64,000 nucleotides of DNA, taken from contig OX597838.1 of assembly GCA_951406725.2 (NCBI GenBank), forward strand, positions 37,262,001 through 37,326,000, given 5' to 3'. This document shows, piece by piece, positions 21,034-63,134 of the stretch (its first letter is position 1; each line of letters opens with the position of its first letter). A model generated the notes under the pieces. That model saw only the letters and a list, made by a program, of their open reading frames with translations, did no database searches and was not told where the DNA came from. This stretch comes from Octopus vulgaris (lineage: Eukaryota). The translations under genes and the position numbers were made by a program.

Positions 21034-21079
<46 letters not shown>

Positions 21080-39350: not shown

Positions 39351-39767
39351 GAGCTGTAAACCAAATGGTCTGCTGGCAAGCATCAGTTCAGCGGCAACTT
39401 CTCCGAAACAGAATGGCAAATCAAGTTCTAGTCCCTGTCCAAAAAGTGGTCGCAATCGAAGCCGTTCACTGTCATATTCGTCGACCGAGCGAGCGAAGAA
39501 GGGTGGCTCACCTACCCAGCACAAGTACACAAAGCCCAGATATTCGTCAGACAGCTCACGAAGTCCGTCACCCGTTGCTCACAAGACGTCGTCGCGCACC
39601 TACCGCTCGAGTCAGTCCAAGTCTGGCAGCAAGTCACCACGGCGTCGGCAACAGCGGTCGCGCAGCCGTAGTCGCTCCAGATCGTTTTCTCGTGCCAGGT
39701 CCAGAAAGACGAGGTCACCATCAAGGTCACGGTCAAGGTCATGTTCAAGGTCACGCAGCTATCGAAG
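39351..39767 (+). CDS. Srrm234: Internal coding exon, RS/SP-rich region of Srrm2/3/4 (Srrm234) splicing factor
   Basis: Acceptor ttctttatctgcttccAG (AG 39349-39350) and donor cgaag|GTtaga (GT 39768). The 417-nt open frame SCKPNGLLAS...RSRSRSRSFSRARSRKTRSPSRSRSRSCSRSRSYR is GC-richer than the flanks, phase 2-2, and joins in frame to the 55482 exon. Confidence 0.85.
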
Positions 39768-40599
39768 GTTAGAAGTTTTTTGTTTTTTTATGTTTTGTTC
39801 CTTTTATTCTTTTTCTTCCCTTTTTTACTCTTTTCAATCATCAGGCTGCGGCCATTCTGGAGCACTGCCTTGAGGTGTTTGACATTGGTTGAATCGACCC
39901 CAATACTCTTATTTTTTGAAGCCCAGGACTTATTTTATCAGTCTCTTTTGCCGAACTGCTAAGTTATAGGGACGTAAACATACCAACACACTGGTTGTAA
40001 AGCTGTGGTGGGGCACAGACACAAAAACTCACACACACACCTACACATACACACCTTGACCAAGAGAGGGGAGCATCTGAGAGGGATGCATGCAGGATGT
40101 TGAGACTCTGAAGTATGATAGAGGGACAAGAACAATTGTCTTGCCATAGAAGAAATACATGGCTATCTTACATTCTATATAAGGGTATTTCTTATTTTTT
40201 TATTGTCCACAAGGGGCTAAACATAGAGGGGACAAACAAAGGGATTAAGTCGATTACATCGATCCCCCAGTGCGTAACTAGTACTTAATCTGTTGACCCC
40301 GAAAGGATGAAAGGCAAAGTCGACCTCAGGGGAATTTGAAGTCAGAACGTAACGGAACCCTGATCAAATGATGGATGCAGGGATATGCTATTATGGCACA
40401 TGCCCCCATACTAGTAGCATCATCATTATCATCTAATGTCACTTTTCACTGCTGGTATGGGTTGGACATTTTGACAGGGTCTGGTAAGGCTGGGATCCAT
40501 TGTTTGTTTGGCATGGTATCTACAGTTGAATGCCCTTTCTAATGCCAACCATTTCTAATGCCAACAGAATATAAATATTCTGTAAAAATTTACGATCCT

Positions 40600-41640
40600 G
40601 TAAAAGCTTAAAGCATTTAGCAATCACCGTGCAATGACTAAGGAAAATAGTCTAATAAGGAAAAGCAAAAAATTTAATAGTGAATCTATCAGAATCTCTT
40701 CAGGATGTGAATGTATAAATTGTAATGGCTATAATAATCACCCTAATAAGAAGTGGAATGAGAGGAATATATTGTGGTACAACCCTGAGTTTGGACCCCA
40801 AGTATCCTCTTAACTTGTAAGAATTTTTTCCGAAAAATTTGAACATGAAAATATGCCTAATAATAATATAGAAGAAAATTGCAACAACTCAAAAGCATAG
40901 AGTAGGTGGAATAGGAAACATCAAATAGACGCCACATACTTTTCAGACATATACTGAAGCAATTCTATGCATCTCACATAAGTTGGAATAATTTATTCTT
41001 AAATTTAATAATAGGAAACTTAACCAAATTGATAATAATATCAACAATATGTCTGGTTGTAATGTAAATCCCATAGACAATCATAACAATAGCATTATGG
41101 GGAATGGTTATATTAGCTTGTATAATGGTAATATTAACAACAATAACAACGATAGTAATAATAACAATTATAATAATAATATTGATAATAATGATTATAG
41201 CAATAATAAAAGCAACAAAAATAATAATTATTGCACTAATAATACTGTTGGTAGTAACATGACTAGCACTAATGATGACTAATTATTTTATAAGAAAAAA
41301 ATGCAATTGTAAGAATAAAACTGTATATCCTCTAGGGAATGAGTGTCTCCAATGAAATATTGTATTTAAATGCATAGACTGAACTTAAGATAAAGAATTT
41401 ACATATATAAGTGCTGCAGTTGATTATTTAAATGTAATCACATTCCATCATTTAAAAGTACAAACAAAAGGTACTGCACAACATCTGTTTGTGATAAAAA
41501 CAGTTTACCGGCATCATGTGAACTCCAGATTATGCGATTTTATTTAAAAGCAACAATGTATTTTGCTGTCCAAAGAAGAACTAATTAACAAATACTCAGA
41601 CATTATTATGAGATGTAATATTATGAGATCAGAAGGGAAT
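40600..41640 (+). mobile_element. Degenerate Penelope-like element, RT-linker and GIY-YIG endonuclease region
   Basis: Conceptual translation RNILWYNPEFGPQV (about 40763), Asn-rich stretch, then KCNCKNKTVYPLGNECLQ*NIVFKC (about 41298) and LINKYSDIIMRC; resembles the WxNP / CNC..CPL.G.CL..N.VY motifs of C-terminal-EN PLEs. Confidence 0.65.
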
Positions 41641-42127
41641 ACAGGAAAAAATATTATCGCCAATGGATAATTGTTTTTAATAACATCTTGTATCAATCTT
41701 GGGAAAATTCAAAATGGCATTTTGGAATAAGTATTATTAAAATAATATAATACATAAAGAGATATTGTATTTTGGGAAAATGGACCCCAGTAGATATAAG
41801 ATTGTGTTATATGATTCATATAAATGCTTACATATTGTATGTGTGTGTGTGTGTGTGCATGCATGCAAATGTAAATATTTTTACATACATTTTTACATAT
41901 TCTGGGAGGTTCATGAAGACAGTGACAGGTGACCGAGACCTTTGTTGATACACCGTGCTTGTGTAGACCTGTCAAGTCAAATGGAATTGTAGCCATGGCC
42001 AATACCAGAGTCATGTCAATGGCACCTGTGCCAGTGGCATGTAAAAAGCACCCTCTACACTCTTGGAGTGGTTGGCATTAGGAAGGGTGTCTAACCGTAA
42101 AAACCTTGCCGAATCAGATTGGAACCT

Positions 42128-42539
42128 ATTTCTTTACTGCCCACAAGGGGCTACACACAGAGGGGACAAACAAGGACAGACAAATGGATTAAGTCGATTA
42201 TATCAACCCTAGTGCTTAACTGGTACTTATTTAATCGACCCCGAAAGGATGAAAGGCAAAGTTGACCTCGGTGGAATTTGAACTCAGAATGGCAGACGAA
42301 ATACCTATTTTTTTACTGCCCACAAGGGGCTACACACAAAGGGGACAAACAAAGACAGACAAACGGATTAAGTCGATTATATCGACCCCAGTGCATAACT
42401 GGTACTTATCTAATCGACCCCGAAAGGATGAAAGGCAAAGTCGACCCCGGTGGAATTTGAACTCAGAACGTAGCGGCAGACGAAATACCATTAAGCATTT
42501 CGCCCGGCGTGCTAACGTTTCTGCCAGCTCTCCGTCTTC
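42128..42539 (-). mobile_element. SINE family B dimer with 15-bp TSD
   Basis: Direct repeat atcagattggaacct at 42113-42127 and 42540-42554. Confidence 0.85.
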
Positions 42540-43350
42540 ATCAGATTGGAACCTGGTCCAGCTCCCTGGCTTTCTAGTTTGTGGTAAAACTGTCCAACCC
42601 ATGCCAGCAAGGAAAGTGGACGTCAAATGATGATGATGATAGATATATAGAAAATCTGTGCAAAGGAATACTGTTATGGTTGCATCAATCCATATACAAT
42701 ATATATGTCTTTACCCTTGCACTTCTGTATGGATATAGATATGTGGGTGTATTGATATATGTGTGAATACCTATATATACTGTATCAGTATATATATTCC
42801 TTGAATATCCTACATCATATTAATTAGTTTTATTACCTCAAAAAAAAAAACATTTTCACAAAGAAATAACTTAGTTTTTATTTGCCTAAAAAAATGTATC
42901 TGTCTCTATGTTTGTGACAGTGAGTAAACATCATAAATATTTTTACCAGCAGCCTGCTACTAAATCAGTTGGTGGTGTGAAAAGTCTTAACAATTAATTC
43001 TAGGTGAGAGACAGCAACGTCAAATTACTAAATAGATGCTAAGTTATGCCTTCAGTCAACCAAAAGACTTTGGGGGAAGACACTATCTATTAACAGATGT
43101 ATGAGTCTGGAGACACAAAGGTTCCTTATCTTATATTCTGTATCTGTTTATTTCCTTATTTTATTTATTCATTTTCATTTTATTCTCTTAGATTCCACCT
43201 GTTTCTTGACCGGTTGTTTTGGATTTGTGGCTTATTGTGTATTTGTTTTTTGTTTTAACTATTGATTACCTAATGCAATGATATGAACGACTTCAACGAG
43301 TTTCAAATATGTTTCCGAATGCATTTAGGCCTTTCGATTTATGTACAGAC

Positions 43351-43467
43351 CTGAAGAGTCGTTATTGTCTAGTAATGCCAGAATAATACTGACTCAATGT
43401 ATTATTTCATATATTATATAATAACATTCTAGCAATAAATTGGCAAAGTGTTGATGAAACAATTGTA
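43351..43467 (+). ncRNA. Degenerate hammerhead motif with long stem II, stem I lost
   Basis: CUGAAGA-guc...gau-GAA-acaauugu-A; palindromic stem III but the stem I strands do not pair. Confidence 0.4.
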
Positions 43468-44474
43468 GAATAATGCAATGAAATGTTCACATTTTCCTTG
43501 TTAATGTTTATATAAACTCTGGGGCTCATCAACATCATCATCGTCATCATCATCATCTATCTGTTTTCCATGCTGGCATGGGTTGAATAGTTTGACAGGC
43601 ACTGGCTAGCCAGAAGACTTCAGCAGGCTTCACTGTCCACTTTGGCATGGTTTCTACTGCTGGATGCTCTTCCTTGTGCCAACCACCCTACAGAGTGGAC
43701 TGAGTATATTTTACATGGCGCCAGCAAAGTCAGTTTTGGCATGGTTTCTAAGGCTGGGTGCCCTTCCTAATGCCAACCACTTTACAGAATGGCCTGAATG
43801 CTTTTACATAGCTGGCAAGGTTTACATTAACATGGTTTTTACAACTGAATGCCCTTCCAAACATCAACCACTTTACAGTGTGTGATGGATGCATTTTACA
43901 TGGCACAAGCACCTGTGGGGTCACTAAGTAACTTGCTAGGGGTAGTTATGGATTTTTAGATATGCCATCTGTGCGGGATAATAACATCTACTCTTTTACT
44001 TCTTTCAGTCATTTGACTGTGGCCATGCTGGAGCACCACCTTTAGTTGAGCAAATTGACCCCAGGACTTATTCTTTGTAAGTCTAGTACTTATTCTATCG
44101 GTCTCTTTTGCCGAACCGCTAAGTTACGAAGATGTAAACAGACCACCATCGGTTGTCAAGTGATGTTAGTGGGGGGGTGGACAGACACACACACACACAT
44201 ATACATACATACGATAGGCTTCTTTCAGTTTCTGTCTACGAAATCCACTCACAAGGCTTTGGTCGACCCGAGGCTATAATGGAAGACACTTGCCCAAGGT
44301 GCCACGCAGTGGGACTGAACCTGGAACCAAAATTTAGTGGTTCAGCAAAAAAGACAGATAGAGTAAATACTAGGCTTACAAAGAATAATTCCTGGGGTTG
44401 ATTTGTTCGACCAAAGGCAGTGCTCCAGCATGGCCACAGTCAAATAACTGAAACACACAACACACATATACATA

Positions 44475-44987
44475 TCTATATATATAAAACTGTAGTTGTG
44501 TGAGTGTCTGTCCCCTTCGATTTAGATTCCTAACTACTCACACATTTTGCGGTGCAGTTTAACCAAATTCGGGTATCTTATAGTCGTGATTCATATCGAG
44601 CCCCTCTGCATATTAGTGCGCGTCTACGATGAGTCTACGATTTTAAAAATAATTTAACATCATTTTTTATTCCATTTTAAGGCATAATTTTTCGTGTGTC
44701 GATGGCGGCGGAGTTGGCGTCCATGGTCACACCTGCACCTGTTTGCTTCTCCCCCTTCTTCCCTCCCTCATGAAGCTGTGGGGAAGGGAGTGTAAGGAAA
44801 TCAACGTCGTAATGCGTTGTCAAGGAGACCAGCGTTCTTTTAGAACAACGACTTCATGGCTTGAAGACACCAAAACAGAAATGGCTAAGAAAGCCCGAAT
44901 TGGCATCTATAAGGGAAGTAACTCTCTAAAAATGCTTATATAGTTATTTCCCTTACAAACCCGAGCAATGCCGGGCGATACTGCTAG
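44475..44987 (+). mobile_element. Non-autonomous Helitron
   Basis: TC start, shared gatttagattcctaactact core, cccgagcaatgccggg hairpin, CTAG|T end. Confidence 0.8.
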
Positions 44988-45226
44988 TATGTATATGTAT
45001 GGCTTCAAGTATTGCTATAAGCTTTGAGAAGCTTATTTCCCAACCATGTAGTTCCATATTTAGTTCCACTGTATGATACCTTCGGCAAGTAACTGTTATA
45101 ATAACCCTAGGAAATTGAAAGGAATCCATCATATATATATGTTAGGGGATGTCCTTGTCTGGAAATCACATGAGAACTTACCATTATGCTAATAATGTCA
45201 TTTGTTTCTAGTCTTCTATGATGTCT

Positions 45227-45640
45227 ATACTCTTTTACTCTTTACTCTTTTACTTGTTTCAGTCATTTGACTGTGGCCATGCTGGAGCACCATCTTTAGT
45301 CAAAGCAAATCGAACCCAGGAGTTATTCTTTGTAAGCCTAGTACTTGTTCTATCGGTCTCTTTTGCCGAACCGCTAAGTAACGGGGACATAAACAAACCA
45401 TCATCGGTTGTCAAGCAACGTTGGGGGAACAAACACAGACACACAAACACGCAAACATATACACATATATACATATATACGACGGGCTTCTTCCAGTTTC
45501 CGTCTACCAAATCCACTCACAAGGCTTTGGTCGGCCCGAGGCTATAGTAGAAGACACTTGTCCAAAGTGCCATGCAGTGGGACTGAACCTGGAACCATGT
45601 GGTTGGTAAGCAAGCTACTTACCACACAGCCACTCCTGTG
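45227..45640 (-). mobile_element. SINE family A
   Basis: Full-length copy. Confidence 0.85.
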
Positions 45641-46067
45641 TCTATGGCCATAATGAAATACTATCTTGCTTAGAAATAGGTGAGGGTTACTGACAGAAAT
45701 TGCATCCAGCCTTAGAAGTTCTGCTTTAACAAATTTAAGGTGGTGCTCTAGCATGGCCATAGTAAATTGACTGAAATAAATAAAGGAATTAGCCATACAA
45801 TTATGGAAGAGTCACTGTGAAGACTTTGATGATGAAGCAAATAACGGTATTTTGTCAAATCTTGGGAGAGGAGTTATGCCAATAATAACCACACACGTTT
45901 TTATTATTATTTTATCATTATTAATCAACTAACCATTTAACCAATTAACTAATTGTTTGATTAATCATTCCATTGATTAACCAGTCAGCTAGGTTTGTCA
46001 ATCAGTCAGTTCTGTTCGTTAATTGGTTAAATGTTTAAGCAAAGTAATTATTTATGAAGTGAAGGCA

Positions 46068-46212
46068 ATATCCTGATGAGTACCTAGAAAGGAAAACGAT
46101 GTTATGTAATTATGAGGGAAGAGAGAAAATTCTAAAGACGTATCCTCCAACATCGTTTCACATTTAGGAAGTTCTAGGCTTACAAAGAATGGTGTATAGA
46201 CCATTTAGATAT
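46068..46212 (+). ncRNA. Degenerate hammerhead motif with extended stem II
   Basis: auauc-CUGAUGA-guaccuagaa..aaacgauguu/aacaucguuu..uucuaggcuuac-aaag (GAAA mutated)-aaugg..ccauu-uA-gauau. Confidence 0.5.
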
Positions 46213-46776
46213 ACACTGGTAAATTAATAAGCATGCAACACTTTGCATATGGAAGTAGGCAAATATTCCTTTTTTGGAAAATCATCAGATTACAATTCCC
46301 AAAACTGAAACATTAATGAAAGAGCAGAGATAATGTCTCTATGTCTTCACAAAAACAAATTTTAGCTCTCAAACTTTAATTGTGGAATCAAACTGGGTGA
46401 ATTAAAAGGAACAAGATAGAAATGAACACAGCTTCTCTTTAGATCATACAGAAGTTTTCAATATATATTTCTTTACTACCCACAAGGGGCTAAACGCAGA
46501 GGGGACAAACAAGGACAGACAAAGCGATTAAGTCGATTCCATCTACCCCAGTGCGTAACTGGTACTTAATTTATCGACCCCGAAAGGATGAAAGGCAAAG
46601 TCGACCTCGGCGGAATTTGAACTCAGAACGTAATGGCAGACGAAATACGGCTACGCATTTCGCCCGGCATGCTACCATTTCTGCCAGCTCGCTTCAATAT
46701 ACTCAAGACAGTGCTGTACACCAGCAATTATTCTCTAACCATTTTTCAATTTTTTTTATTAAACTTTTAATTAAGA

Positions 46777-46950
46777 TGGCGCAGGAGTGGCTGTGTGGTA
46801 AGTAGCTTGCTAACAAACCACATGGTTCCGGGTTCAGTCCCACTGCGTGGCATCTTGGGCAAGTGTCTTCTGCTATAGCCCCGGGCTGACCAATGCCTTG
46901 TGAGTGGATTAGGTGGACGGAAACTGAAAGAAGCCTGTCGTATATATGTG

Positions 46951-46981
<31 letters not shown>

Positions 46982-47191
46982 TTGTGTGTCTGTGTTTGTC
47001 CCCCTAGCATTGCTTGAACAACCGATGCTGGTGTGTTTACGTCCCCGTCACTTAGCGGTTCGGCAAAAGAGACCGATAGAATAAGTACTGGGCTTCCAAA
47101 GAATAAGTCCTGGGGTCGATTTGCTCGACTAAAGGCGGTGCTCCAGCATGGTCGCAGTCAAATGACTGAAACAAGTAAAAGAGTAAAGAGT
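46777..47191 (+). mobile_element. SINE family A
   Basis: Full-length copy. Confidence 0.85.
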
Positions 47192-48052
47192 ATGCATCTC
47201 TTGATCAATCACATTAGTGGCTTAAGTTTGAGTTAATGAACATTTCTACAAATGTAACATCGTCATTTATAACATTGACATTTCCATCCTTGCTTAATCA
47301 AAGCAAAGCCGTTGCAGCAGATGTCCTACAGCAGTGTGCTCTTCCTGTTGCCAACACTCACCTGTATCCAAGCAGTTAAAATCCGTTTGTCTGTCCTTTC
47401 TGTGTTTAGCCACTTTTGCGTAGTAAAGAAATACGTGGGTAACAAACACACACACACACACAGAGTGATAATAATCCTTGGATGGAATTTATAAATATTC
47501 TAATGCATCTCCATCCAAGGATGATTGTTATTATTATTATTATATTTATTCTAGATTATATCAGCACAGTTTGGTGCATCCCCCCAAAACTGCTATCACC
47601 TGCTGGCATCATTAAGTTGTGGCTGGCATGATAGAGCTGGAGCATTTATATGCATATTCAAAATGTTTCCCACAAACAAACTTAGAGTATATACCATCAT
47701 CATCATCATGATGTGTTTTACATCTGGGTTTTGCTTACCCCACAACCTCAGTTTCTCAGAAATGAGTGGTCCCAAAACCAAGGCCTCTGCCAAAATTTTT
47801 AAGAAACGTGGTGGAAAACTAGCTCAGGACGGCAGGGATGCTACTCTCTGAGACCCCTTTCAGACCCCCTACCCACACACACAGACAGACAGACAGATAG
47901 ATAGATACTGGTATAAACGATGGGCTTCTTTCAGTTTCTGTCTACACAATCCCCACACAAGGCTTTGATTGGATCGAGAAGCCATTTGCCCCAGGTGTCA
48001 TGAAACTGGAATCATGTGGTTGAGAAGCAAGCTTCTTACCACACAGCCACGT

Positions 48053-48093
<41 letters not shown>

Positions 48094-48094
48094 T

Positions 48095-48712
48095 ATGGCC
48101 CAGTGGTTAGGGCAGCGGACTCGCGGTCGTAGGATCGCAGTTTCGATTCCCAGACCGGGCGTTGTGAATGTTTATTGAGCGAAAACACCAAAAGATCCAC
48201 GAGGCTCCGGCAGTGGGTGGTGGCGATCCCTGATGTACTCTTTCACCACAACTTTCTCTCACTCTTTCTTCTGTTGGCCTACTCGCTTCAGCCAGTGGGG
48301 TGGCGTCATTTGAAGGCTAAAACAATGCGAAGCGCATCGTGACCAGCGATGTGTAGCAACATCTGATAGCCTGGTCGGTCACAGTGATCACGGTGATATA
48401 TATATATATATATGTGTGTGTGTGGAGGCACAATGGCCCAGTGGTGAGGGGAGCGGACTCGCAGTTTCAATTCCCAGACCGAGCGTTGTGAGTGTTTATT
48501 GAGCGAAAACACCTAAAGCACCACGAGGCTCCGGCAGGGGGTGGTGGCGATCCCTGCTGTACTCTTTTGCCACAACTTTCTCTCACTCTTTCTACTGTTG
48601 GCCTGCTCGCTTAGCCAGCAGGGTGGCATCATTTGAGGGCTAAAACAGTGTGAAGTGCATTGTGGCCAGCGATGTGTAACAACATCTGATAGCCTGGTCG
48701 GTCACGGTCACA
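48095..48712 (+). mobile_element. Two adjacent SINE family C copies with an alternative tail
   Basis: Copies at 48095-48390 and 48423-48712, each ending in (TA)n. Confidence 0.8.
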
Positions 48713-49400
48713 GTGATATATATATATATATATATATGAAGATGAAGAGAGATCCAGCAGCATCAAGTGTGTGTGTGTATATGATGTGGAGCAATTCTGA
48801 ATGAACAGGTTACCTGCTATGTATGTCAGAGAACCCAAGGAAATGCTTTCTGTTTCATATTTTAGAATGTATACATAAATTCATGCTTCCTAACCAGTAT
48901 GTATACATGTGTGAATGCATAGACAGCTGCGTCACTTGCATATATACATTCATGCGCAAAGGTATGCATGTATGTGTATCTTTCTTTGGGTATGTAAATG
49001 TATGTGTATATATATATATATGTGTTAAATATACATTTTATGTATAGATATATGTGTGTATGCATTTACTATGAATACATATTTGTGTGTGTGTGTGTGT
49101 ATACACACACACACACACACACACATGTACATATATACCCACACAGACATTTACATACAAGCACAAATTCATGTATATTTTATATATATATATACATATA
49201 TAGACATATATATATATATACACTTATTTACTTATATATACATACATACATATACTTACAAACACATACACACATATAATATCATATATATATATACATA
49301 CGATATATGTGCATAATTATCTAAGTACAATATATATGTAAAATTATGCGTTCAAATATACACACACCCACACATATGTATAAGTGTAGATGTGTATATA

Positions 49401-49432
<32 letters not shown>

Positions 49433-49935
49433 AGATTGAGAATCAGAAAAAGACACAGAAATTTCGAAAGAGAGACAAATATACGTCGTTATTTGAAAAT
49501 GTTATTGCACAAATTTGCAATTTTGTCATAAAAAAGTGAAAAGAAGTTTTATTTTTTGAAAACTAAAACCCAAAAGTGTATTGTAAAAGTTGAAATATAA
49601 CTTGAAATAAAACCATAGCATCGAGCTTGGACTATAAAACAGTTGTGAGATCGAGTCTGTCGGGGGGGGGGCGGGGGATGGGGGCTGGCAGCCATTATGA
49701 CGAGGCTTTCTTCTTGGTGCTCATTAACTTTGCAAACTGCTTCTGGTCTGTTGAATATGTATATATATATATATACACGCATACATACATGTATATATAT
49801 ATATATATGTGTATGTGTATATATATATATGTATGTATATATATGTATATATATATATATGTATGTGTATATATATATATGTATGTATATATATGTATAT
49901 ATATATATATGTACGTATATATATATATATATATG

Positions 49936-49980
<45 letters not shown>

Positions 49981-50279
49981 ATATATATATGCATGTATAT
50001 ATATATGCATGTATATATATACATATGTATGTATATATATATATATGCATGTATATATATATGCATGTATATATATATATGTATGTATATATATATGTAT
50101 GTATATATATATATATATATGTATGTATATATTTATATGTATGTATATATTTATATGTATATATATATGTATGTATATATATGTGTATGAATGTATATAT
50201 ACATACACATATACATACATGTATATATATATATATATATGTGTATGTGTGTATATATATATATGTGTGTGTATATGTA

Positions 50280-50894
50280 TCTCTTATTATAAAAGGCAGA
50301 TTTTATCTGCCTCCCTTTGGGAGTTATAGAAATCTACAATATAGGATTTCTTCAATTACAATTTACCTGGCATTTTTAACAGTACAATGCATCGCGTCAT
50401 GCCAGGTCCAGTTTTTAAAATTTAAACTCCAATTAAGCAAAATTTACAGAAAACTCACATTCTGGTGTGTGTGTCAAATGCTTTTCTTAGTCTGGTTTAC
50501 ACCACACGCAAACGCACACACACACTGGGCAAGGAATAAAATGAAAGTAATTCACTTACTGTAGTGAGTGATTCTTTCACTCTGCTTGCCACTTCCTCTT
50601 TACACACATAGAAAAAACTTTTATTTTTTTACATAAGTAATGAGAGCGAAAGAGACTAAGAGAAAGCGATTGTATGACGAGGGAAGTTCCTTTCAAGTTA
50701 CCGTGCATGGGACTCATTGATGTACATGTGTGTGTGTGTGTGTGTTTGATGGAGTGTGGGAGACAGACAGTATGTTGTGTAAGTGAAGTGCTTCTGTTAG
50801 TGTGTGTGAAGAGACAGAGAGAGTAATGTGTGAAAGAGAGAGATAACTGAAATTTTTTACTCGGTTTATGTGTATATGTATGTATGCATGTATG

Positions 50895-50927
<33 letters not shown>

Positions 50928-51769
50928 TTATATATAAAAGAAAGGTTGTGTGTCTGTCTACTCCGATTTAGATTCCTAACTACTCCCACATTTTGCGATG
51001 CAGTTTAACCAAATTATCTTATAGTATCTTATAGTCGTGATTCATATCGAGCCCTTCTGGGTATTAGCGCGCGTCTACGATGAGTCTATGATTTTACAAA
51101 TAATTTACCATCATTTTTTTCCATTTTAATGCATATTTTTAAAATAAACGGAAGTAACTCTCAAACTTCACACCAATATGCGTGCTCATATGCGACGTAA
51201 TATCACATCACCAGCATTTCCTCACACTCTCCTTGCACTTGGCGAAGGCAAAATACCAGGGGATGAAAATGGTAATATTGCCATCGATTCCATTTGTACC
51301 ATTGTTAAGACGCCTTCTGATCTCAGAGATGCAGTGTTCCCAGATTTACAAGCTAATTATCAGAATATGGATTGGATTGGCAAAAAGGCTGGCCCCGAGG
51401 AATAAAACTGTTCACCATATTAATGATGAAATGCTAAAACTCATTCCTGGGGAAGTCGATGTATATCAGTCTATCGATACAACTCCTGACCCAGAGGACG
51501 TCATCAACTATCCAATAGAGGTACTCAATTCCTTTGAGCACCCCGGACTACCACCACACTTTCTCAAACTTAAAGTTAGTGCCCCTATAATGCTCATCAG
51601 AAATTTGGTTCCCCCAAAACAATGCAATGGCACAGGTTTGGCGTTAAGTCCTTATCTCCCACCGTAAGCTTATTTCAATATTTGCCTGAATAATCATCAT
51701 AATTCAGTGCAATCATTAACAGTACTTTCAAGCAATTCAGCCCCGAGCAACGCCGGGCAATTCTGCTAG
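50280..51769 (+). mobile_element. Composite Helitron with helicase remnant
   Basis: TC start at 50280, second 5'-like module at about 50930, 3' hairpin cccgagcaacgccggg and CTAG|T at 51766-51770. Confidence 0.8.
51160..51660 (+). pseudogene. Frameshifted Helitron Pif1-family helicase fragment
   Basis: NMRAH..LLALGEGKIP, then in another frame LAPRNKTVHHINDEMLKLIPGE...YPIEVLNSFEHPGLPPHFLKLKVSAPIMLIRNL..QCNGT, typical of Helitron RepHel helicases. Confidence 0.9.
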
Positions 51770-51809
51770 TATATATATATATGTACGTATATATATATAT
51801 ATATGTATG

Positions 51810-51858
<49 letters not shown>

Positions 51859-51915
51859 ATATATATATGCATGTATATATATATGCATGTATATATATAT
51901 ATATATGTATGTATG

Positions 51916-51946
<31 letters not shown>

Positions 51947-51969
51947 GTATGTATATATATATATGTATG

Positions 51970-52002
<33 letters not shown>

Positions 52003-52099
52003 ATATATATATATATATGTATGTATATATATATATATATATATGTATGTATATATATATATATATATGTATGTATATATATATATATATATATGTATG

Positions 52100-52131
<32 letters not shown>

Positions 52132-52402
52132 TATGTATGTATATATATATATATATATGTATGTATATATTTATATGTATGTATATATTTATATGTATAT
52201 ATATATGTATGTATATATATGTGTATGAATGTATATATACATACACATATACATACATGTATATATATATATATGTGTGTGTGTGTGTATGTATATATAT
52301 ATATATATGTGTATGTATGTGTATATATTTATATGTATATGCATGTATATGTAGACATATATATATTTATATATATGTACACACACACATATACATACTT
52401 AC

Positions 52403-52450
<48 letters not shown>

Positions 52451-53020
52451 ATATTTATGTATGTATATATACATGTATCCCCTTGCACATTGGCAGAATC
52501 GTTAAAGTTGGACAAAAATGCTTTATGGTAATTCTTCTGTTTCATTAACATTCTGTGTTCAAATCCCACGTAATTCAACCTTGCATTTCTTATTTAGGCA
52601 CAGAAGTGGCTGTGTGGTAAGTAGCTTGCTTACCAACCACATGGTTCTGGGTTCATTCCCACTGCATAGCACACCTTGGGCAAGTGTCTTCTACTATAGC
52701 CTCGGCCCAACCAAAGCCTTGTGAGTGGATTTGGTAGACGGAAACTGAAATGCCCGTCGTATATGTTGATGAATACCACCTATTGATCCCCTCCATTTTC
52801 TTATTGCCGTATAAATTAAGGTTAAAATAACTCTTTACCTTCACTCATTTATTACATTCATTAGTGTAATTGCCATGCAGTGAAAAAACACTTGTGTATT
52901 ACTAATTGGGTATTCTACCAGCAATATATATATCCAATATACATCGGATAGATATTATCCCTTAGTTGGTTGGATTCACAACCTCTAACTCTCTAGGAAT
53001 TATATATATATATATATATA

Positions 53021-53390
53021 GTTGCTCGGGTTTGTTTCGACCCTTTAGAATTGGAATTTTTTAAAAGTAAAAATTCTGCATTTTGTAGCGTGTTATTCTC
53101 TTTAAGTGAACATTTTCCTGGTTGAAATACACCGAAAAGTGGCAACACAGCAGTCAAAAAATCGTTAAAAATAGAGATTTTCATAGAAAAAAATCACCTT
53201 TTTGATGTAAGTAATTTTTGATGTTAACATGGTCTGATTTGAGTTTTTTCTTCAACAGAAGGAAGAGCAAGCCTTCTTCTATCATACTCTCAATTTTGGT
53301 CAACCTGCACCGCAGGGTCTCGGAGGAGATAGTGTTAGTTGTAGGCTTCCAAACCTGCAATACACAAACAACTTCAGCTTTATATATAGA
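53021..53390 (-). mobile_element. Non-autonomous Helitron, 3'-truncated
   Basis: Minus strand starts TCtatatataaagctgaagttg and ends in aaacccgagcaac (half of the family hairpin) before a TA tract. Confidence 0.6.
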
Positions 53391-54236
53391 TATATATATA
53401 TATATATATATGTACACCAGTAGAATATTATCTCGCATAGAAATACATCACAGTAGGCAACTGGAAGAGCATACAGCCATAGACAACTCCGCACCAACAT
53501 ATTCTTGCCTGACCCTTGTAAGCCCGAAGCAGCTGACATGGAAACGATGATGATGATTATGAATACTAAAATAGCACAGAATCAGTTTATGTTAATAATA
53601 GTTTCAAAACCATTAAAAGTCACCTCAAACTAATTGGCTCATTATCATCAGATTTAACTATTAATTATGTCTGCTCCTGTCTGTTTGAGATATAAATATC
53701 TATCTTTCTATATAATCTATCTATATATATATATATATATGTATGTATATTTCATTATATAACTAGAACTTGAAGGAGATAAGGCTATAAATGATAGTAT
53801 GTAAATATTATTTATAGCTTTATCTACTTTGAGTTCTGCATTTATCGAACAAATTATTTCCTGTTCTCTTGAAGTTTCTAAATTCGTATTCTTATGATGT
53901 AAGGACATATAAGATGATGACAGAAACAAGTAAAAAGTAAATAGAAAAAAGAAAATGTATATGTGTGTGTGTATGTGTGTGTGTGTGTGTCTATATATTA
54001 TTTGTGATGGAAGCAATATCAATACCAAGAGATAATCTTTATATCCAACTCACTTCTTAGCAAGTCAAATACTGCATTTTGAGCCCTGAAAGATCCCCCC
54101 ACATAAGCATTTGGTTTCTAAATAAGCACTTGGTTTTTAAATAGGCATCTGGTTTCTATAGGCACTTGGTTTCTAAATAGGCATCTGGTTTCTATACACA
54201 TATCATAGATGAGAACCATCTGCCATAGGTGCTGGA

Positions 54237-54285
54237 ACTCCCATATCATGTGATTTCATTCTACTGGATATCATCAGTGGAGAGC
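54237..54285 (-). ncRNA. Type I hammerhead ribozyme motif (intact core, weak stem II)
   Basis: gcucucca-CUGAUGA-uauccaguagaau-GAA-auca(ca)ugau-A-ugggagu. Confidence 0.6.
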
Positions 54286-54476
54286 ATCCGGTCACTACAT
54301 GCTAGTCAAACCTTGCAGCTAAGGTATATAAAATATCAGCATCTTTTAAGACACTGATATTGCAGATGGCTAGCAGGTTTATTAAAAATTAAGTATTTGT
54401 GATGGAGAAAGTATTTGTACCAAAAGGTAATCATTATATCCAACTTAACATGGATGTTTTGTTAGAATACCAAATA

Positions 54477-54906
54477 GTCTTTTCTACTCTAGGCACAAGG
54501 CCTGAAATTTTGGGGAAGGGGGCCAGTCGATTAGATCGACCCCAGTATGCAATCAGTACTTTATTGACCCCAAAAGGATGAAAGGTAAACTTGACCTCGG
54601 TGGAATTTGAACATAGAACATAATGACAGACGAAATACCTATTTCTTTACTACCCACAAGGGGCTACACACAGAGGGGATAAACAAGGACAGACAAACGG
54701 ATTAAGTCGATTATATCGACCCCAGTGCATAACTGGTACTTATTTAATCGATACCAGTGCATAACTGGTACTTATTTAATCGACCCCGAAAGGATGAACG
54801 GCAAAGTCGACAACAGTGGAATTTGAACTCAGAATGCAGTGGCGGACGAAATACCGCTAACCATTTTGCCCGGTATGCTAACGTTTCTGCCAGTTCCCCG
54901 CCTTAC
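54477..54906 (-). mobile_element. SINE family B dimer with 14-bp TSD
   Basis: Direct repeat tagaataccaaata at 54463-54476 and 54907-54920. Confidence 0.8.
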
Positions 54907-55017
54907 TAGAATACCAAATATTGCAGTATTATCCTTAAAAAATCACATACACACACACACACACACACAAAGCTGTTAATGTTTACTCTGCTTAGAACAA
55001 CAGTTCCCATAACTCTG

Positions 55018-55433
55018 TACTCTTTACTCTTTTACTCTTTTACTTGTTTCAGTCATTTGACTGCGGCCATGCTGGAGCACCGCCTTTAGTCGAGCAAATC
55101 GACCCCGGGACTTATTCTTTGTAAGCCCAGTACTTATTGTATCGGTCTCTTTTGCCGAACCGCTAATGTGACGGGGACGTAAACACACCAGCATCGGTTG
55201 TCAAGCAATGCTAGGGGGACAAACACAGACACACAAACACACACACGCATATATATAAATACATATATACGACAGGCTTCTTTCAGTTTCCGTCTACAAA
55301 ATCCACTCACAAGGCATTGGTCGGCCCGGGGCTATAGCAGAAGACACTTGCCCAAGATGCCACGCAGTGGGACTGAACCCGGAACCATGTGGCTGGTTAG
55401 CAAGCTACTTACCACACAGCCACTCCTGCGCCT
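55018..55433 (-). mobile_element. SINE family A, about 50 nt upstream of the eMIC exon acceptor
   Basis: Full-length, near-consensus copy. Confidence 0.85.
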
Positions 55434-55481
55434 TTTTTTTATTTATATACTGTACGTTTTTTTTTTTTTATATATCAACAG

Positions 55482-55628
55482 GCGCTTAAGTCCGAGCCGA
55501 TCACACAGCCATGGTCGTGATTACAGCCGAAGTCAGAGCCGAGGCTCCAGGAGGAGAGAATCTCGCAGCCCTTCCATTCGACGGCGACCAGGCTCACCAA
55601 GCCATCTTGATAAACGAAGAATCACGAG
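55482..55628 (+). CDS. Srrm234: Coding exon carrying the N-terminal half of the eMIC domain (RLSPSRSHSHGRDYSRSQSRGSRRRESRSPSIRRRPGSPSHLDKRRIT-S)
   Basis: Poly-T tract plus tcaacAG acceptor (55480-55481) and donor atcacgag|GTatgg (55629); 147 nt, phase 2-2. SPSHLDKRRIT closely matches the SRRM3/SRRM4 eMIC motif SPSHLEARRITSARKRPIPYY (recalled from memory). Confidence 0.88.
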
Positions 55629-55995
55629 GTATGGCCCATAACACTTTATATTAAAATTTCCAGTCCATGTTGTTGTTGTCTTTTTTGGCCACTTAACTGT
55701 TGTCATGACAATAGTTGTTGTTGTTGTTGTTGCTGCTTTTGTTGTTTCCATTGTTGTTGTGGTTGTTGTTGTTGTTAGCATAGAAATTTTGAAGAAATCT
55801 ATTTTATTTCACTCTTTTTTTCTGAGATTCTTTATAGGATTCTAGACTTTTCCATTTATTGCCATTTATATTTTCAGGAGTTTCAGTATACACATAAATA
55901 TATGCACATATGTATATAGCTTATATATATATATATATATATATATCCATGTATCTATCTAATTTATGCTTATACATGTATGAATATATGCACAT

Positions 55996-56046
<51 letters not shown>

Positions 56047-58691
56047 ATTATATGCATTTATGTATATAGCTTCTATATACATTAAATATTTGTTTAGATG
56101 TTTATATATATATATATATACATATATTCACACTCAAATATATATATACACACACACACACATGCATGTATATTTATAGTTTCTATGCATATATATACAC
56201 GTGCAAATATGCATATAGATGTTTATAACATATATATATATATATGTATATTCACACACACACACACAGATATATATACAGAAGCCTATGTGTTTAGAGT
56301 TCCTATGCTTATATATATATATACACATGCTCATATATGCATATATGTTTATAGATCATGATCATCAGTTAACAGCCAGCTTCCATGCTGTCATGGGTTG
56401 TATGGCTTGCCAGGAATTGACAAACCAGAGGACTGCAGCATGTTCTGGAGTCTATTTTGACATGGTTCTTCTGACTGGATGTCCTTCATAATGCCAACCA
56501 CTATACAGAGTGGATTCGGTGCTTCTTTACGTGGCACCAGCACTAGTGATGTCTTTTTTGGCATGGGTTTTACAGCTGGATGCCTTTCCAAAGAGCAACC
56601 ACTTTACTGAGTGGATGAGTGAATGTTTTTTTACCAAGCAACTTGCAAGACAAACGTCCTTTGAGAGGGGTGGGTACTGGAGGAAGTGGCTTTGTGCCAG
56701 GAGATGAGTTTGGAGTACAACAGAAGGACAGCAACAGGTGGCGAGTGGAGAGTGTGAGGGAGGGAGCAAAGATGAGAGGAATCGAGAGGGATGGAGGCAA
56801 TGTGCTAGGGAATACTCTCAGGGCTGAGGACACACGAGTAGGGAGTTCATGTGAATGCAAAAAAGTGGGGTGAGAAGTGGGGATGCAGTGACTGGTGAAA
56901 CCTAGGCATAACAGTATTGGAACGATACACTTGGCAGTGCAGGGGGGACAGGATTGGGCAGCAGGAGTGGAGGGGGAGGGATAAGTATAATGCTAGGGAA
57001 AAGGGAACGTGAGGAGGAGGAGGAGGAAGGGAAGAGATGTAGTTTGGTTTATTTGTATGAAAAGTCTTATGTTACCTGTGGGTGTGGCACATTGCACTTC
57101 CAGAACTCAGTTTCACTGAGGTGGGCAGGTGTTGAAGAACCTTGTATCCCCAGAAATCATGGCCCAGTGTCATCTCCTCCATGAGGCCCAAAATCTTGAG
57201 TTGAGTCCTCACTACTTAATCCTATGTCTTCCGAAGTCTCCCTCTTCCACAGGTGTCACCCACTTTAAGCGATCGGCACTTTATACAGCTGTCATCATTC
57301 ATACACATCACATGTCTAAACCAACATAGTATTCTCTTTTACATGTTGTATCTGCTTCCAATATATCATCATCATCATCATCATCATCGTTTAACGTCCG
57401 TTTTCCATGCTAGCATGGGTTGGACAGTTTGACCTGGGTCTGGGAAGCCAGGATGCTGCACCAGGCTCCAGTCTGATCTGGCAGTGTTTCTACAGCTGGA
57501 TGCCCTTCCTAATGCCAACCACAACATGCGTGTAGTGGGTCCATTTTACGTGTCACCAGAATGGAAGCCAGTCAAGGCGGCGCTGGCATTGGCCACGTTC
57601 GGATGGTGCTTTTTACCTGCCACTGGCACAGGTATCACAACTACAATTTCTGTTTGATTTGTATTTTGATGTTGATGTACTTGACTCAATAGGTCTCCTC
57701 AAGCACAGCAGGTCGCCCTACAATCCAAAGTATATATATATATATATATATATATATGGGAAGGTGCATATCTTGGTGGTTAGGGTGTTGCACTTCTGAT
57801 TGTGAGATTGTGGGTTCAATTCCCAGAGCAGGCATTGCATTGTGTTCTTGAGCAAAGCACTCCATTTCACATTGCTCTGCGATCATTTCGACATCTGACA
57901 TGTGGCACCCATTGCACCTGTTGAACCCTCATACAGTGTCTAACAATGGGAGAGTCCCTCATATCACCTTAAAATTTCAAACACAGAAACACATCTAGAC
58001 ACGAGTAAATATTAACTGGGCTAGGAAGCAGTTGAAGGTTGGCAACAGGAAAAGCATCTGCGGATAGAAATACGGCCTCAGTAAACTTCATGTGACCCAT
58101 TATTAAAATGATGATGACAATGGTGATGATGATAAAAAATGTGTATCCTCTTATGTTTTAACCATTTCTCCAAAGAAGCTTCATACATATATATATATAC
58201 ATGTTGTTTGTTCCTTCTCGAGCCGTGCCTGGCTCATAAGGGCCAGTTTCCCGGTTTCCTTGGCATATAGGTTCCCCACCTGGATAGGACGCCAGTCTAT
58301 CGTAGGTGAGCTGCATGATGCAGGAGGAAAGAGTGAGAGAAAGTTGTGGCGAAAGAGTCAGCAGAAGTTTGCCATTACCTTTTGCCGGAGCCGCGTGAAG
58401 CTTAGGTGTTTTGCTCATAAACACATACATCGCCCGGTCTGAGATTTGAACCCGCAATCCCTCGACTGCAAGTCCGCTGCTCTAACCACTAGGCCATGTG
58501 CCTCCACAACACACACACACACACACACACATGAATGTATATATTTATATATGTATGCCTGTATATAAATATGTGTGTGTGTGTGTGTATTTATATATAT
58601 ATATATATACATACACACACACACACACATGAATGTATATATTTATATATGTATGCCTGTTTATATATATGTATGTGTGTGTGTGTGTATT

Positions 58692-58723
<32 letters not shown>

Positions 58724-59433
58724 ATAAATGAATGTGTTTGTGCACAACTTTCTAGCCATGGCAGCAAGGAAAATTGACATTAAATGATAATTATATATAT
58801 AGACATACATATATCTATACACACGCACATCATCATCATTTATACTTATACATATGTATGCACACACAAACACACACACACACACACTTGCACACACTCT
58901 GCCCCTTTATGCAGAAACTCACAAGCACAAATCTATATCTTGGCAATGCTACAGATCTGGCTATAAATCAAAGCATTTTGTACAGCTTATTAAACTATTA
59001 TTGATGTGTCTTTGTAAGTGACCAAAGGTCAGCGGGTCAGATGGCTTATGGGACCTGGTGTCCACTCGTATTCTGGCATGATATATGTATATCTAGTGCA
59101 AAGTTTTGATGCTTATCTGTGCATATATGTGTGTGTGTGTGTGCGTGTTTAGTGATTGATATACACATATTTGTGCGTGTATATGTGTATGTATGCATAA
59201 ATGTGTGTGTGTGTGTTTGTGTTTTTGTATATAGTATACATGTGTGTGTGTGTGTGTTTACTGACTGATGTACACATAATTGTATGCGCATATGTGTGTA
59301 TATATGTGTGTGTGTGTATGCTTAAATGTGTGTGTGTGTGTGTTTGTGTTTTTGTATATAGTATATGTGTGAATGTGTGTGCATGTATATGTTTGTGTTT
59401 TTGATATAATGTGTGCATGTGTATTTCTGTATA

Positions 59434-59477
<44 letters not shown>

Positions 59478-59974
59478 AATGATTGACATATACATAATTG
59501 TGTATGCATGTGTTGGTATATATGTATGCATAAGTATATATGATTGTGTGTGTGTGTGTATGCATGGGTTCATATGTGTATGTGTGTGTGTGCGCTGCGA
59601 TCGTGGCACAGTCCTTTGACCTATCAAATCCTGTTGAGCCTTCCAGTCAATACCATGATGGAAGATGGACATTAAAACATGATGATGATGATTATGATGA
59701 TGATTATGATGTGTGTGTGTGTGTTATGGTATTTCTTGTGGTGCCACCTGGGCCCCTCATCATCCCTATTAGCTTCCTTGCAGCTGCAACTGATTCATTC
59801 TCACACATTCCCCTAAATGCAAGTAGCCACATAACTCCTCTGCAAACAGAGCCTCTTCAGCCTCGCCCTCTCCTCCTCCTCCTCTCATACCGTAACCCTC
59901 GTTTCCAACCATAAAGGTGCACTCCCCTTCTCTTTCATTGTCTTCTGAGTGAGCTGCATGCTGACACTTCTTAT

Positions 59975-60670
59975 GTGTCCAGTAAACCTCTCGTGGGTCG
60001 AGTACACCTCTCGTGGGTCCAGTAAACCTCACGTTTGTCCAGTAAACCTCTCATGGGTCCAGTACAGCTCTCGTATGTCCAGTACACCTCACGTTTGTCC
60101 AGTAAACCTCTTGTGGGTTCAGTAAACCTCTCATGTGTTCAGTGCACCTCTCGTGTGTCCAGTACAGCTCTCGTGTGTCCAGTACACCTCTCATGTGTCC
60201 AGTACACCTCACGTTAGTCAAGTACGCCTGTCATGTGTCCAGCACACTTCTTCTATGTCCAGCACACCTCTTCTGTGTCCAGCACACCTCTCGTGTGTCC
60301 AGCACACCTCTCGTGTGTCCAGTACACCTCACATGAGTCCAGTATACTTCTGTGTCCAGCACACCTCTCGTGTGTCCAGTACACTTCTGTGTCCAGTACA
60401 CCTCTCATGTGTCCAGTACACCTCTCATGTGTCCAGTACACCTCTGTGTCCAGTACACCTCTTCTGTGTCTAGCACACATCTTCTGTGTCCAGTACACCT
60501 CACATGAGTCCAGTACACCTCTGTGTCCAGTACACCTCTTCTGTGTCCAGCACACATCTTCTGTGTCCAGTACACCTCTCATGTGTCCAGTACACCTCTG
60601 TGTCCAGTACACCTCTTCTGTGTCTAGCACACATCTTCTGTGTCCAGTACACCTCTCGTGTGTCCAGTAC
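59975..60670. repeat. Minisatellite, 17-20-nt unit tgtccagtacacctc(tca)tg
   Basis: More than 30 directly abutting variant units. Confidence 0.9.
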
Positions 60671-61053
60671 ATCTCTTATGTATGTTCCAGCGTTACTTTC
60701 CCATGCAAGGAACATATTTGCCAATATAGTTGTAGATATCTAGAGGAAAGCTTACATGTTTGTATGGTTGTATGGGTGGCATGTCCATGATTACACCTAC
60801 ATGGAATCAGGGCTGACCCAGGTCCTTAGTGACATCATCATCACCATCACTGACAACAATAACAACACCAATGCCAAATAATCATCTTCACTAATTATTT
60901 AGAAATTAGAAATGCATAAATATCTCAAAAAATCTCATCAACTGCAAATTATACAGTCTTAATGAATCATTTAATCAACCTCTTAATTATTTATTTATTC
61001 ATTATTAAAATAATTGTTTATTTTCTTGTAGTTGTAAGGAGTTTATTTCAGTA

Positions 61054-61086
<33 letters not shown>

Positions 61087-61844
61087 TTATGAGTATATAT
61101 GTGTACGTGTGTATTTGTGTGTATATGTACACAACTGCATGAGTGTGTGTTTGTGTGTGTGTATGTGTATTTCTGCATGTGTGCATCTTTGTTGACCTTC
61201 AATAATTTGCATTAAAGCGTGTTTGCTTGCATGTGTGTGTGTGTTTACACATGCACACATGTGCATGCACGCACACACACACATTTAGGTACAGTTTTGG
61301 CCGAGTAGTTAAGAAGCTTTGTTTACAGTTATGTAGTTTTGGGTTCAGTCCCACAGCATGGTACCTTGAGCAGGTATCTTCTACTATAGGCCCAGGATGG
61401 CTAATAATGCCTTTGAGCGAATTTGGTAGATGGAAACTGTGCAGAATCCCACTGCCTATATATATATATGTGCACATGTGTGTGTGCATGCGTGTCTTTG
61501 TGATTGTCCCCCCACTGCCACTGTTTGACAACCAGTGTTGGTTTGTTTGCATTCCAATAACTAGGTAGTTCAACTAAAGAAAGTGACAGGATAAGTAACA
61601 GACTTGAAAATATAAGTATTGGGGTTGATCTGTTTGAGTTAACCCAGCAAGGCAGTGCTCCAGTATGGTTGCAATCCAATGACTGAAACCAGTAAAAGAT
61701 AAATGATGTTTGTCTGTGTGTATGTGTGTGTGTGTGTGGGAATTTCATTTTATTTCCATGATTTATTATGCAGGTGTAGACATGTATATACATATAAATA
61801 TACATGTATATACATACAAACATGCACACATTAACACATGTCAG

Positions 61845-61876
<32 letters not shown>

Positions 61877-62471
61877 AATTAACAATTAAGGATAACCTCT
61901 TAATAAGGAATCTTAACAAGAAATTATCAGGTAGTTAGCGTGAAAAACCTCATAAAAGAAAAGAATTCGAAAATAATTTTTTTCTTTTGAACAAATTAAT
62001 TATATCTATATTGTATAGAGGGCATTAATACACATAAATGCCTCACACTAAGAGGGACAAAGTCATTACTACCATTTTGGTAGTAATGACTTTGTCCCTC
62101 TTAGTGTGAGGCATTTATGTGTATTAATGCCCTCTATACAATATATATATATATATATGCATTAACACATGCGTGTGTGTGAGTGTGTATGTATATATGT
62201 GTATGTATATATATATATGTATAGATATGTGTGTGTATGTGTATATATATATATATATGTATAGATATGTGTGTGTATGTGTATATATATATATGTATAG
62301 ATATGTGTGTGTATGTATATATATATATATATGTGTGTGTGTGCATGTATATATATATGTGTTTGTGTATGTATATATATATATGTGTGTGTGTGTATAT
62401 ATAAAAGGCGGTGCTCCAGCATGGCCGCAGTCAAATGACTGAAACAAGTAAAAGAAAAAAAAAAAAGAAAA

Positions 62472-62514
<43 letters not shown>

Positions 62515-63134
62515 TATATATTTGTTTGAATGCGTGTATGTTGGTTTTCTTCAGTAATTTGTTATGAGGATTCATTTATTTGTGTGTGTCACTGAGCATG
62601 TGAGTTTGTGTGTGTGCGTGACTGAGCATGTGTGTGTGACTGAGCATGTGTGTGTTTGTGTGTGTGTGCCTTTCAATCTATATATGTAAATTTATTTTTA
62701 AAAATTTACCTGTGCACTCATGTCTATGTATGTCCATGTGGACAACTGTTTGTTTTCATTTTTAATCATAAAAATCTATATTCACTCATATTTATTTTCT
62801 GTTTTTTTTTTCATTATTCTAATTTGTTTATTTTCTTCCATCCTTATTATTATTTTTAATTTTTTTCTTTTTCTATGTTTTGCTTTAAAATCAAATTTTC
62901 AGTTTTTACATTAATTTTTCAGTTGCTAAAATTCTTATTTTTATTTAATCTATGTATTTTTTATTTTTGAATTTGATTTTGCTGTTTTATGCTTAATCTT
63001 TTATTTTGTTTATTATTTTCATTATGTATCCCCCACCCCTTCCCCTTAAGGAACAAGGGGGATAGGTTTGAACATGCAAAGCAGAGCATTCACTGCTTGT
63101 GAGTCCTTGCTCAATGGTAGCACAACGAGAATAT

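Follow-up and report, generated by a model that had tools for sequence, protein, structure and literature searches.

The eMIC domain of the Srrm2/3/4 family is described as interacting with U2AF1/2 and SF1, and its restriction is reported to be transcriptional, via Srrm3/4, in vertebrates; in non-vertebrates, which have one Srrm234 gene, it is reported to depend on how the RNA of that gene is processed (PMC8797185; preprint 10.1101/2021.02.24.432780). In Drosophila, two last exons are described in that work as competing under Elav/Fne: a proximal one without eMIC and a distal one that encodes it. The vertebrate family is described as split into three genes with dedicated domains (PMC6800468, PMC10551640), and cwf21 is among the domains listed for srrm3/srrm4 (10.1101/2021.09.08.459463). 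SRm300/Cwc21 is described as stabilising the Prp8 Switch loop and contacting the 5' exon (PMC5835773, PMC5934631), and a length of 293 amino acids (aa) is given for S. pombe Cwf21 (PMC7671692). Here we analyse a Srrm234 gene of Octopus vulgaris, two exons of which lie in a stretch of 64,000 nucleotides (nt), called the window throughout (C25:37262001-37326000, in a genome of 2.80 Gb). Among the vertebrate paralogs, SRRM3 keeps cwf21 and has lost the N-terminal peptide of SRRM2.

The octopus genome has two diverged paralogs of the family, which we name C25 (the gene of the window) and C27 after their contigs. Probably, a short Srrm234 mRNA was retroposed in the coleoid ancestor, giving a core, Cwc21-like C27 and an eMIC-activator C25. 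In the literature searched, which did not extend to the eMIC-defining paper of 2019, no duplication of Srrm in cephalopods is described. That paper (Torres-Mendez 2019, Nat Ecol Evol) reportedly sampled an octopus, and a prior mention of the split in it is possible. No cephalopod case is mentioned in the available parts of 10.64898/2026.09.05.749416, PMC12992808, PMC7671692 and 10.64898/2026.09.14.751627.

The closest described genes are the non-vertebrate Srrm234 genes (Drosophila CG7971; abalone XP_067651386.1 and XP_067651420.1). Like the octopus, they have cwf21, an RS (arginine/serine) region, and an eMIC interrupted after the residues RRIT by a phase-2 intron, with its remainder in a distal last exon. 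Unlike in the octopus, each of these is a single gene whose N-terminus is intact and which can end instead in an RS-rich last exon without eMIC; the octopus has the N-terminal peptide in one gene and the eMIC in another, and a search for the alternative exon did not detect it. C25 belongs to the eMIC-bearing Srrm2/3/4 family. Of the features that define the canonical single Srrm234 gene of invertebrates, two are missing from it: its N-terminal peptide is not intact, and no alternative RS last exon could be detected. The expectation of the usual single invertebrate gene, present in the preliminary description of the window, does not hold for this genome.

The eMIC exons of the window

The exons and introns at the 3' end of C25 are the following:
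1-39350 (+): distal part of the intron preceding exon a; the nearest candidate exon is 46.8 kb upstream of exon a.
39351-39767 (+): exon a, RS-rich coding, 417 nt, phase 2-2, boundaries CAG/G...AG/GTTAGA.
39768-55481 (+): intron a-b, 15,714 nt, GT-AG, full of simple and interspersed repeats.
55482-55628 (+): exon b, first half of the eMIC, ending in RRIT, 147 nt, phase 2-2, boundaries CAG/G...AG/GTATGG.
55629-64000 (+): first 8.4 kb of the last intron, which has 24,152 nt and ends outside the window at exon c.
C25:37341781-37341955 (window-equivalent 79781-79955) (+): exon c, which completes the eMIC (ARKRP) and continues with an RS tail and the stop.

Exons a and b are the third-last and second-last coding exons of C25, and both contribute to the RS-rich region that precedes the eMIC. 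The preliminary description, made from the letters of the window, had proposed two phase-2 exons spliced in frame across a 15.7-kb intron, and had predicted a next exon starting T/C-GCN and encoding ARKRP, which it could not see in the remaining 8.4 kb. Both proposals are borne out. A motif search did not find the ARKRP exon in the window either; it lies 24.2 kb downstream of exon b, outside the window, where exon c begins with T followed by GCA, so that AG+T across the junction encodes Ser. An AATAAA with a GU-rich element follows exon c, at C25:37342419.

Transcript evidence comes from assembled contigs of 4 runs from 4 studies, whose status as RNA is presumed. Each of the 4 runs has one contig whose coverage is confined to 55480-55628 and whose loose ends match the last letters of exon a and the first of exon c, joining exon a to b and exon b to c. 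The RNA status of these runs is a guess, yet a spliced contig must derive from a transcript. All sampled words of exon a were present in 19 of the 24 runs listed and none in the other 5; no run is on record as RNA, so these counts are silent on expression.

Assignment to a cephalopod Srrm234, also proposed from the letters, agrees with the protein comparisons. Mollusc SRRM2-like proteins are the best matches, the eMIC region is identical to that of abalone at 42 of 48 positions (counted by hand on the alignment block), and exon b alone matches Pfam SRRM_C (PF15230) at 33.2 bits, for a cut-off of 27. The earlier reading of the two exons as encoding the eMIC stands for exon b through this match, and needs correction in that exon b holds the first half only. 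Neither can exon b be taken, by itself, as a mark of the neural isoform, since its abalone equivalent is carried by eMIC and non-eMIC isoforms alike (see below).

Two cwf21 loci and one eMIC

The abalone Srrm234 protein matched the genome at two loci, C25 and C27. Across the genome, cwf21 also gave two matches, in C27 and C25 (7 candidates scored), and SRRM_C a single one, in exon b (25 candidates scored). No single octopus gene therefore has both an intact N-terminal peptide and the eMIC. The intact N-terminal spliceosome peptide and cwf21 are both present in C27, and the two paralogs retain complementary parts of the protein, as seen from their identity to abalone:
Residues 1-26 (N-terminal peptide): C25 10/26, C27 23/26.
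Residues 27-54: C25 6/28, C27 22/28.
cwf21: C25 39/48, C27 35/48.
Residues 103-172: C25 20/66, C27 46/70.

C25 has a 4-residue insertion within the N-terminal peptide and a poly-proline insert after it. Out of 17 N-terminal positions conserved in at least 90% of 162 homologs, C27 keeps all 17 and C25 keeps 7, a count that favours C27 in that the homologs were gathered with C27 as query and chosen on the core motif. When compared with chains from spliceosome structures, the N-terminus of C27 matched human SRRM2 (E-value 7e-39) and a 26-residue chain (residues 1-26 listed; 3e-9), whereas exon 1 of C25, which has only half of cwf21, gave no SRRM2 match. We infer from these differences that the N-terminus of C25 would no longer be able to hold the Prp8 Switch loop or the 5' exon. 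The core of cwf21, in contrast, is better kept in C25 than in C27, which makes it unlikely that the upstream exons of C25 are dead.

In likeness to described proteins, the two genes diverge. C27 resembles SRRM2/SRm300, yeast Cwc21 and S. pombe Cwf21 in having the N-terminus that is modelled in spliceosome structures, and its size is near that of Cwf21; it differs in lacking both a long RS region and introns in its coding sequence. C25 resembles vertebrate SRRM3 (and SRRM4/nSR100) in being a paralog in which the eMIC is apparently fixed. Its origin would be separate from theirs, by a retroposition in which the parent kept the eMIC, and a read-through polyadenylation switch may remain in it. C25 likely acts as SRRM3 does in vertebrates, as its analog rather than as an ortholog.

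The intronless paralog

The C27 copy is a single open frame of 303 codons with a stop at codon 304 (C27:11247-12158), 11 kb from the contig end. Its coding region lacks the introns of the parent, and it is unlinked to C25, being on another contig. The frame runs uninterrupted across the intron positions of C25, including the one after EEQG, where many homologs taken from unspliced DNA stop. It ends in a lysine-rich stretch that matches the end of C25 exon 5; the long RS region of metazoan SRRM2 is missing, and the stop at codon 304 is common to the orthologs. No RS or eMIC exon was found downstream of the copy (C27:1-120000).

Orthologs of C27, with 257-289 aa and the same lysine-rich stop, were found in O. 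sinensis (XP_029656664.1), in the cuttlefish Sepia pharaonis (CAE1318731.1) and in records P0158-P0160. Identity among the octopods and this cuttlefish is 86-87% over ~180 residues, and the orthologs form one clade (support 94/99). The O. sinensis protein has two RefSeq accessions, which bear on broad expression only indirectly. Since octopod and cuttlefish orthologs fall in one clade, the copy appears to predate the octopod-decapodiform split; it must in any case be old, as 17 of the 33 cwf21 residues shared by C25 and C27 are encoded by different codons. An assembly error in a homopolymer, considered as the cause of the stop, was ruled out, as the orthologs end identically.

The end of C27 suggests which template was copied. 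Ten of the fetched homologs are proteins of 218-224 aa that end at this same exon boundary, the equivalent of the end of exon 5. They suggest a short ancestral Srrm234 isoform as the template of the retrocopy; an alternative for this end is internal priming on the A-rich lysine codons.

An intronless, truncated coding sequence 11 kb from a contig end could also be a dead processed pseudogene, which would leave C25 as the sole functional Srrm234, working with an unusual N-terminus. We regard this as very unlikely: the frame is open, the same stop and 86-87% identity are kept between octopods and cuttlefish, all of the conserved N-terminal positions are retained, and the codon differences mark an old copy.

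Two further observations concern C27. An acceptor-like site ~50 nt before its ATG (L022:1380-1500) suggests a gained exon in the 5' untranslated region. Its GC content at third codon positions is 0.67, compared to 0.53 in exons 1-2 of C25.

The C25 gene upstream of the window

No upstream exon had been recognised in the first 39 kb of the window, in accordance with the distance to the nearest candidate, and a search for cwf21 further upstream had been proposed. The cwf21 exons are found 1.2-1.5 Mb upstream, on the same contig and strand. The exon model upstream of the window is the following:
C25:35789609-35789966: e1, ATG at 35789635; decayed N-terminus, poly-Pro insert and first half of cwf21; from homology.
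C25:36065940: e2, 99 nt; from homology.
C25:36736527: e3, 168 nt; from homology, matched by 9 of 13 homolog queries in a local tblastn.
C25:37035543: e4, 69 nt; from splice signals and composition, aligns in order with abalone.
C25:37138430: e5, 63 nt; from splice signals and composition, aligns in order with abalone; reading through its donor gives RYV-stop, as in two short homologous proteins.
C25:37208470: e5b (tentative), 45 nt; from composition and splice signals only.
C25:37218172: e6, 105 nt; from splice signals and composition, aligns in order with abalone.
C25:37254260: e7 (tentative), 282 nt; from composition and splice signals only.

With exons a, b and c, the exons span 35,789,609-37,341,955, that is, 1.55 Mb, on one strand, collinear and all of phase 2-2, and encode 633 aa with 0 internal stops. 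The genome search with C27 residues 106-180 missed exon 3, which the local tblastn found. The very long, repeat-rich introns that had been proposed from the window are a feature of the whole gene: to those of 15,714 nt and 24,152 nt at the 3' end are added a first intron of 276 kb, one of 299 kb and one of 670 kb. Exons e1 to c are predicted to form one gene, in which the join of the upstream exons to exon a is proposed from collinearity and phase.

These distances raise the alternative that the cwf21 exons, 1.2-1.5 Mb away, do not belong to the transcript of the window (being a separate gene, a relic or a misjoin), and that the window gene is SRRM4-like, with RS and eMIC only. In favour of this alternative, intron lengths of 276, 670 and 299 kb are extreme, only composition and splice signals place e5b and e7, and no RNA links the cwf21 exons to exon a. 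Nevertheless, the cwf21 and downstream exons lie on one strand, in the ancestral order and with matching phase, with no stop over 633 codons. The 1.46 Mb of the region that were examined, to which the 276 kb first intron is external, contain no N gaps. After k-mer filtering of repeats, 208 non-repetitive open reading frames (ORFs) of at least 100 codons were left there, and Pfam matches of the 150 longest were to domains of mobile elements, apart from two weak sub-threshold matches. In 3 of the 4 runs, moreover, the contigs extend 813-1155 nt 5' of exon a; one reaches 1155 nt, for 1144-1189 nt in our model, which fits, although other exon sets fit too. We consider the separation of the cwf21 exons from the window gene very unlikely.

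When looked up by exact match, the C27 ORF and four C25 ORFs proved absent from the protein collection searched. Nor did that collection yield the eMIC gene, which may thus be missing from public annotations or fragmented in them.

Possible control of the eMIC at the 3' end

Two candidate features follow the donor of exon b:
55629-55641 (+): donor read-through, RYGP-stop, from sequence.
55650-55690 (+): candidate intronic polyadenylation site, ATTAAA with a GU/U-rich element, starting 8 nt past the read-through stop.

As previously described, reading through the donor at 55629 gives RYGP and then TAA (55639-41), which would cut the eMIC in half. The chance of a polyadenylation hexamer within 30 nt is 0.043 (post hoc, sequence only), and an equally good downstream element follows 3.4% of the 2137 hexamers in the 1.46 Mb region (also post hoc). 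An off switch by intronic polyadenylation is possible.

Such a switch is central to the main rival explanation, in which C25 would still be a broadly expressed Srrm234 and RNA processing would turn the eMIC on and off, by polyadenylation at 55650 (RYGP-stop) outside neurons and by splicing of exon c, ELAV-like, in neurons, with C27 as an accessory. The rarity of the ATTAAA and its downstream element (chance frequencies of 0.043 x 0.034, post hoc) speaks for it, as do the description of Drosophila limiting the eMIC through 3' end processing under Elav/Fne (PMC8797185) and the strong constraint on cwf21 in C25. However, in all 4 runs exon b is directly followed by exon c in the contig. No contig in these runs covers the read-through (55629-55641), although contigs drop short tips, so that its absence is not demonstrated. 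UUUNUUU (ELAV) motifs are not enriched 3' of the donor, with 2 in 300 nt, as many as in 15% of windows; and even a C25 form without eMIC would lack an intact N-terminal peptide. We find this explanation unlikely as an account of the two genes, and it can coexist, as a second layer, with a split between C25 and C27.

The 24 kb intron, with 167 acceptor-like sites, and the next 184 kb, with 980, yielded no RS-rich last exon without eMIC; the best RS-dipeptide score was 3, compared to 7 for exon c. A profile of 8 non-eMIC tails likewise detected no alternative last exon (best E-value 2.2). In abalone, isoforms X1 and X2 end in the eMIC and X3 and X4 in an RS-rich tail, all after the same RRIT; non-eMIC tails like these are also present in apple snail, sea cucumber and further records.

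The gene model of Dreissena (P0082) has 11 extra residues between RRIT and the ARKRP exon, like the start of the abalone non-eMIC tail, which suggests that in bivalves the proximal non-eMIC exon may be located between exons b and c. Abalone X1 and X3 have 8 extra residues after the equivalent of exon 4, likely a 24-nt microexon within Srrm234 itself; no octopus match to it was found among the SR-like phase-2 candidates printed for intron 4 (2 of 9 printed).

Repeats and other sequences nearby

Repeats surround exon b. An interspersed repeat, likely a short interspersed element, occupies 55040-55432 and ends ~50 nt before the acceptor of exon b, and it has many copies in the window (e.g., 3794-4096, 20834-21142 and 46703-47047). 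The a-b intron also contains an ORF with a Pif1 2B helicase domain (51158-51667 (+), E-value 9e-11), likely a Helitron fragment, and the b-c intron a tandem array with long CVQHTS-like open frames (60126-60790).

Further upstream, intronic repeat arrays at C25:36320507-36328105 (-) and 36239863-36243141 (+) are open in several reading frames, over as many as 2468 and 1093 codons. A weak sub-threshold Pfam match to L_protein_N (L069:2520-3053 (-), C25 ~36.885 Mb, E-value 5e-5) may stem from the endonuclease of a retroelement or from an ancient viral insertion. An intronic ORF of 773 codons lies 5 kb from it and has a weak PHD-like match; we rejected it as a nested cellular gene, as it is a reverse transcriptase. 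ORFs of GIY-YIG (Penelope-like) and endonuclease or reverse-transcriptase type are found within and downstream of C25 (L093:5873-7117, L122:7283-8935, L010:6988-9519 and L019). Among the homologs, the 1314-aa record P0008 consists of 23 tandem copies of the Cwc21 N-terminal segment, possibly an artefact.

Discussion

The retroposition that we favour would have proceeded as follows. Before octopods and decapodiforms diverged, a short Srrm234 mRNA whose end lay near exon 5 would have been retroposed. It would have carried cwf21, the N-terminal peptide before it and the conserved block after it, but neither the RS domain nor the eMIC. With the retrocopy supplying the spliceosome-core function, constraint on the parent would have relaxed in the N-terminal peptide and in residues 103-172; the parent would have kept cwf21, RS and eMIC and lost the RS-rich non-eMIC last exon. 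Today, C27 likely does the core spliceosomal job of SRRM2/Cwc21, and C25 likely works as a dedicated, SRRM3-like activator of neural microexons, whose eMIC would bring U2AF/SF1 to the 3' splice sites of microexons, in the way published for other animals. Transcription would now be the main level of neural restriction, with intronic polyadenylation at 55650 as a possible backup.

Several results weigh against this reading. The N-terminal decay of C25 is seen in one genome: none of the 87 candidates in the homolog search was a C25 ortholog from another cephalopod, and none of 238 candidates was homologous to C25 exon 1 at an E-value of 1e-15, a threshold too strict for this to be more than a weak negative. 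The phylogeny leaves C25 unplaced, on a branch of length 2.77. In favour of the reading, holding C25 with the C27 clade gave a log-likelihood 7.4 higher and was not rejected in the approximately unbiased test (p 0.76), although p >0.05 does not prove the clade; this test omitted the Sepia row, with its aberrant first residues. The tree was built without SRRM3/4 sequences, and C25 is filed as an analog of SRRM3/4, not as a member. No RNA record among the contigs joins the cwf21 exons to exon a, and the runs carry no tissue labels, so the eMIC junction in all 4 says nothing on neural restriction. The intronic polyadenylation signal past the read-through stop points to a post-transcriptional control of the eMIC that may have been retained. 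Finally, C27 lacks an RS domain and would be at best a minimal Cwc21-like protein.

We still consider the retroposition probable. A broader claim, which we put forward tentatively and hold as possible, is that coleoids repeated the vertebrate solution independently: the retrocopy would have taken the housekeeping role, and the parent would have become a giant, neuron-restricted gene with a constitutive eMIC, which may have widened the neural microexon program. If true, that split fell in the stem lineage of the largest invertebrate brains. The coleoid split, if true, would also be an exception to the rule of one gene under post-transcriptional control, and a second independent case of isoforms turned into paralogs. 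The eMIC could then be removed in squid without loss of a core spliceosomal factor. An eMIC exon in the octopus was to be expected; its two-paralog setting is the unexpected part, and makes it a possible case of convergence in the regulatory evolution of animals with large brains.

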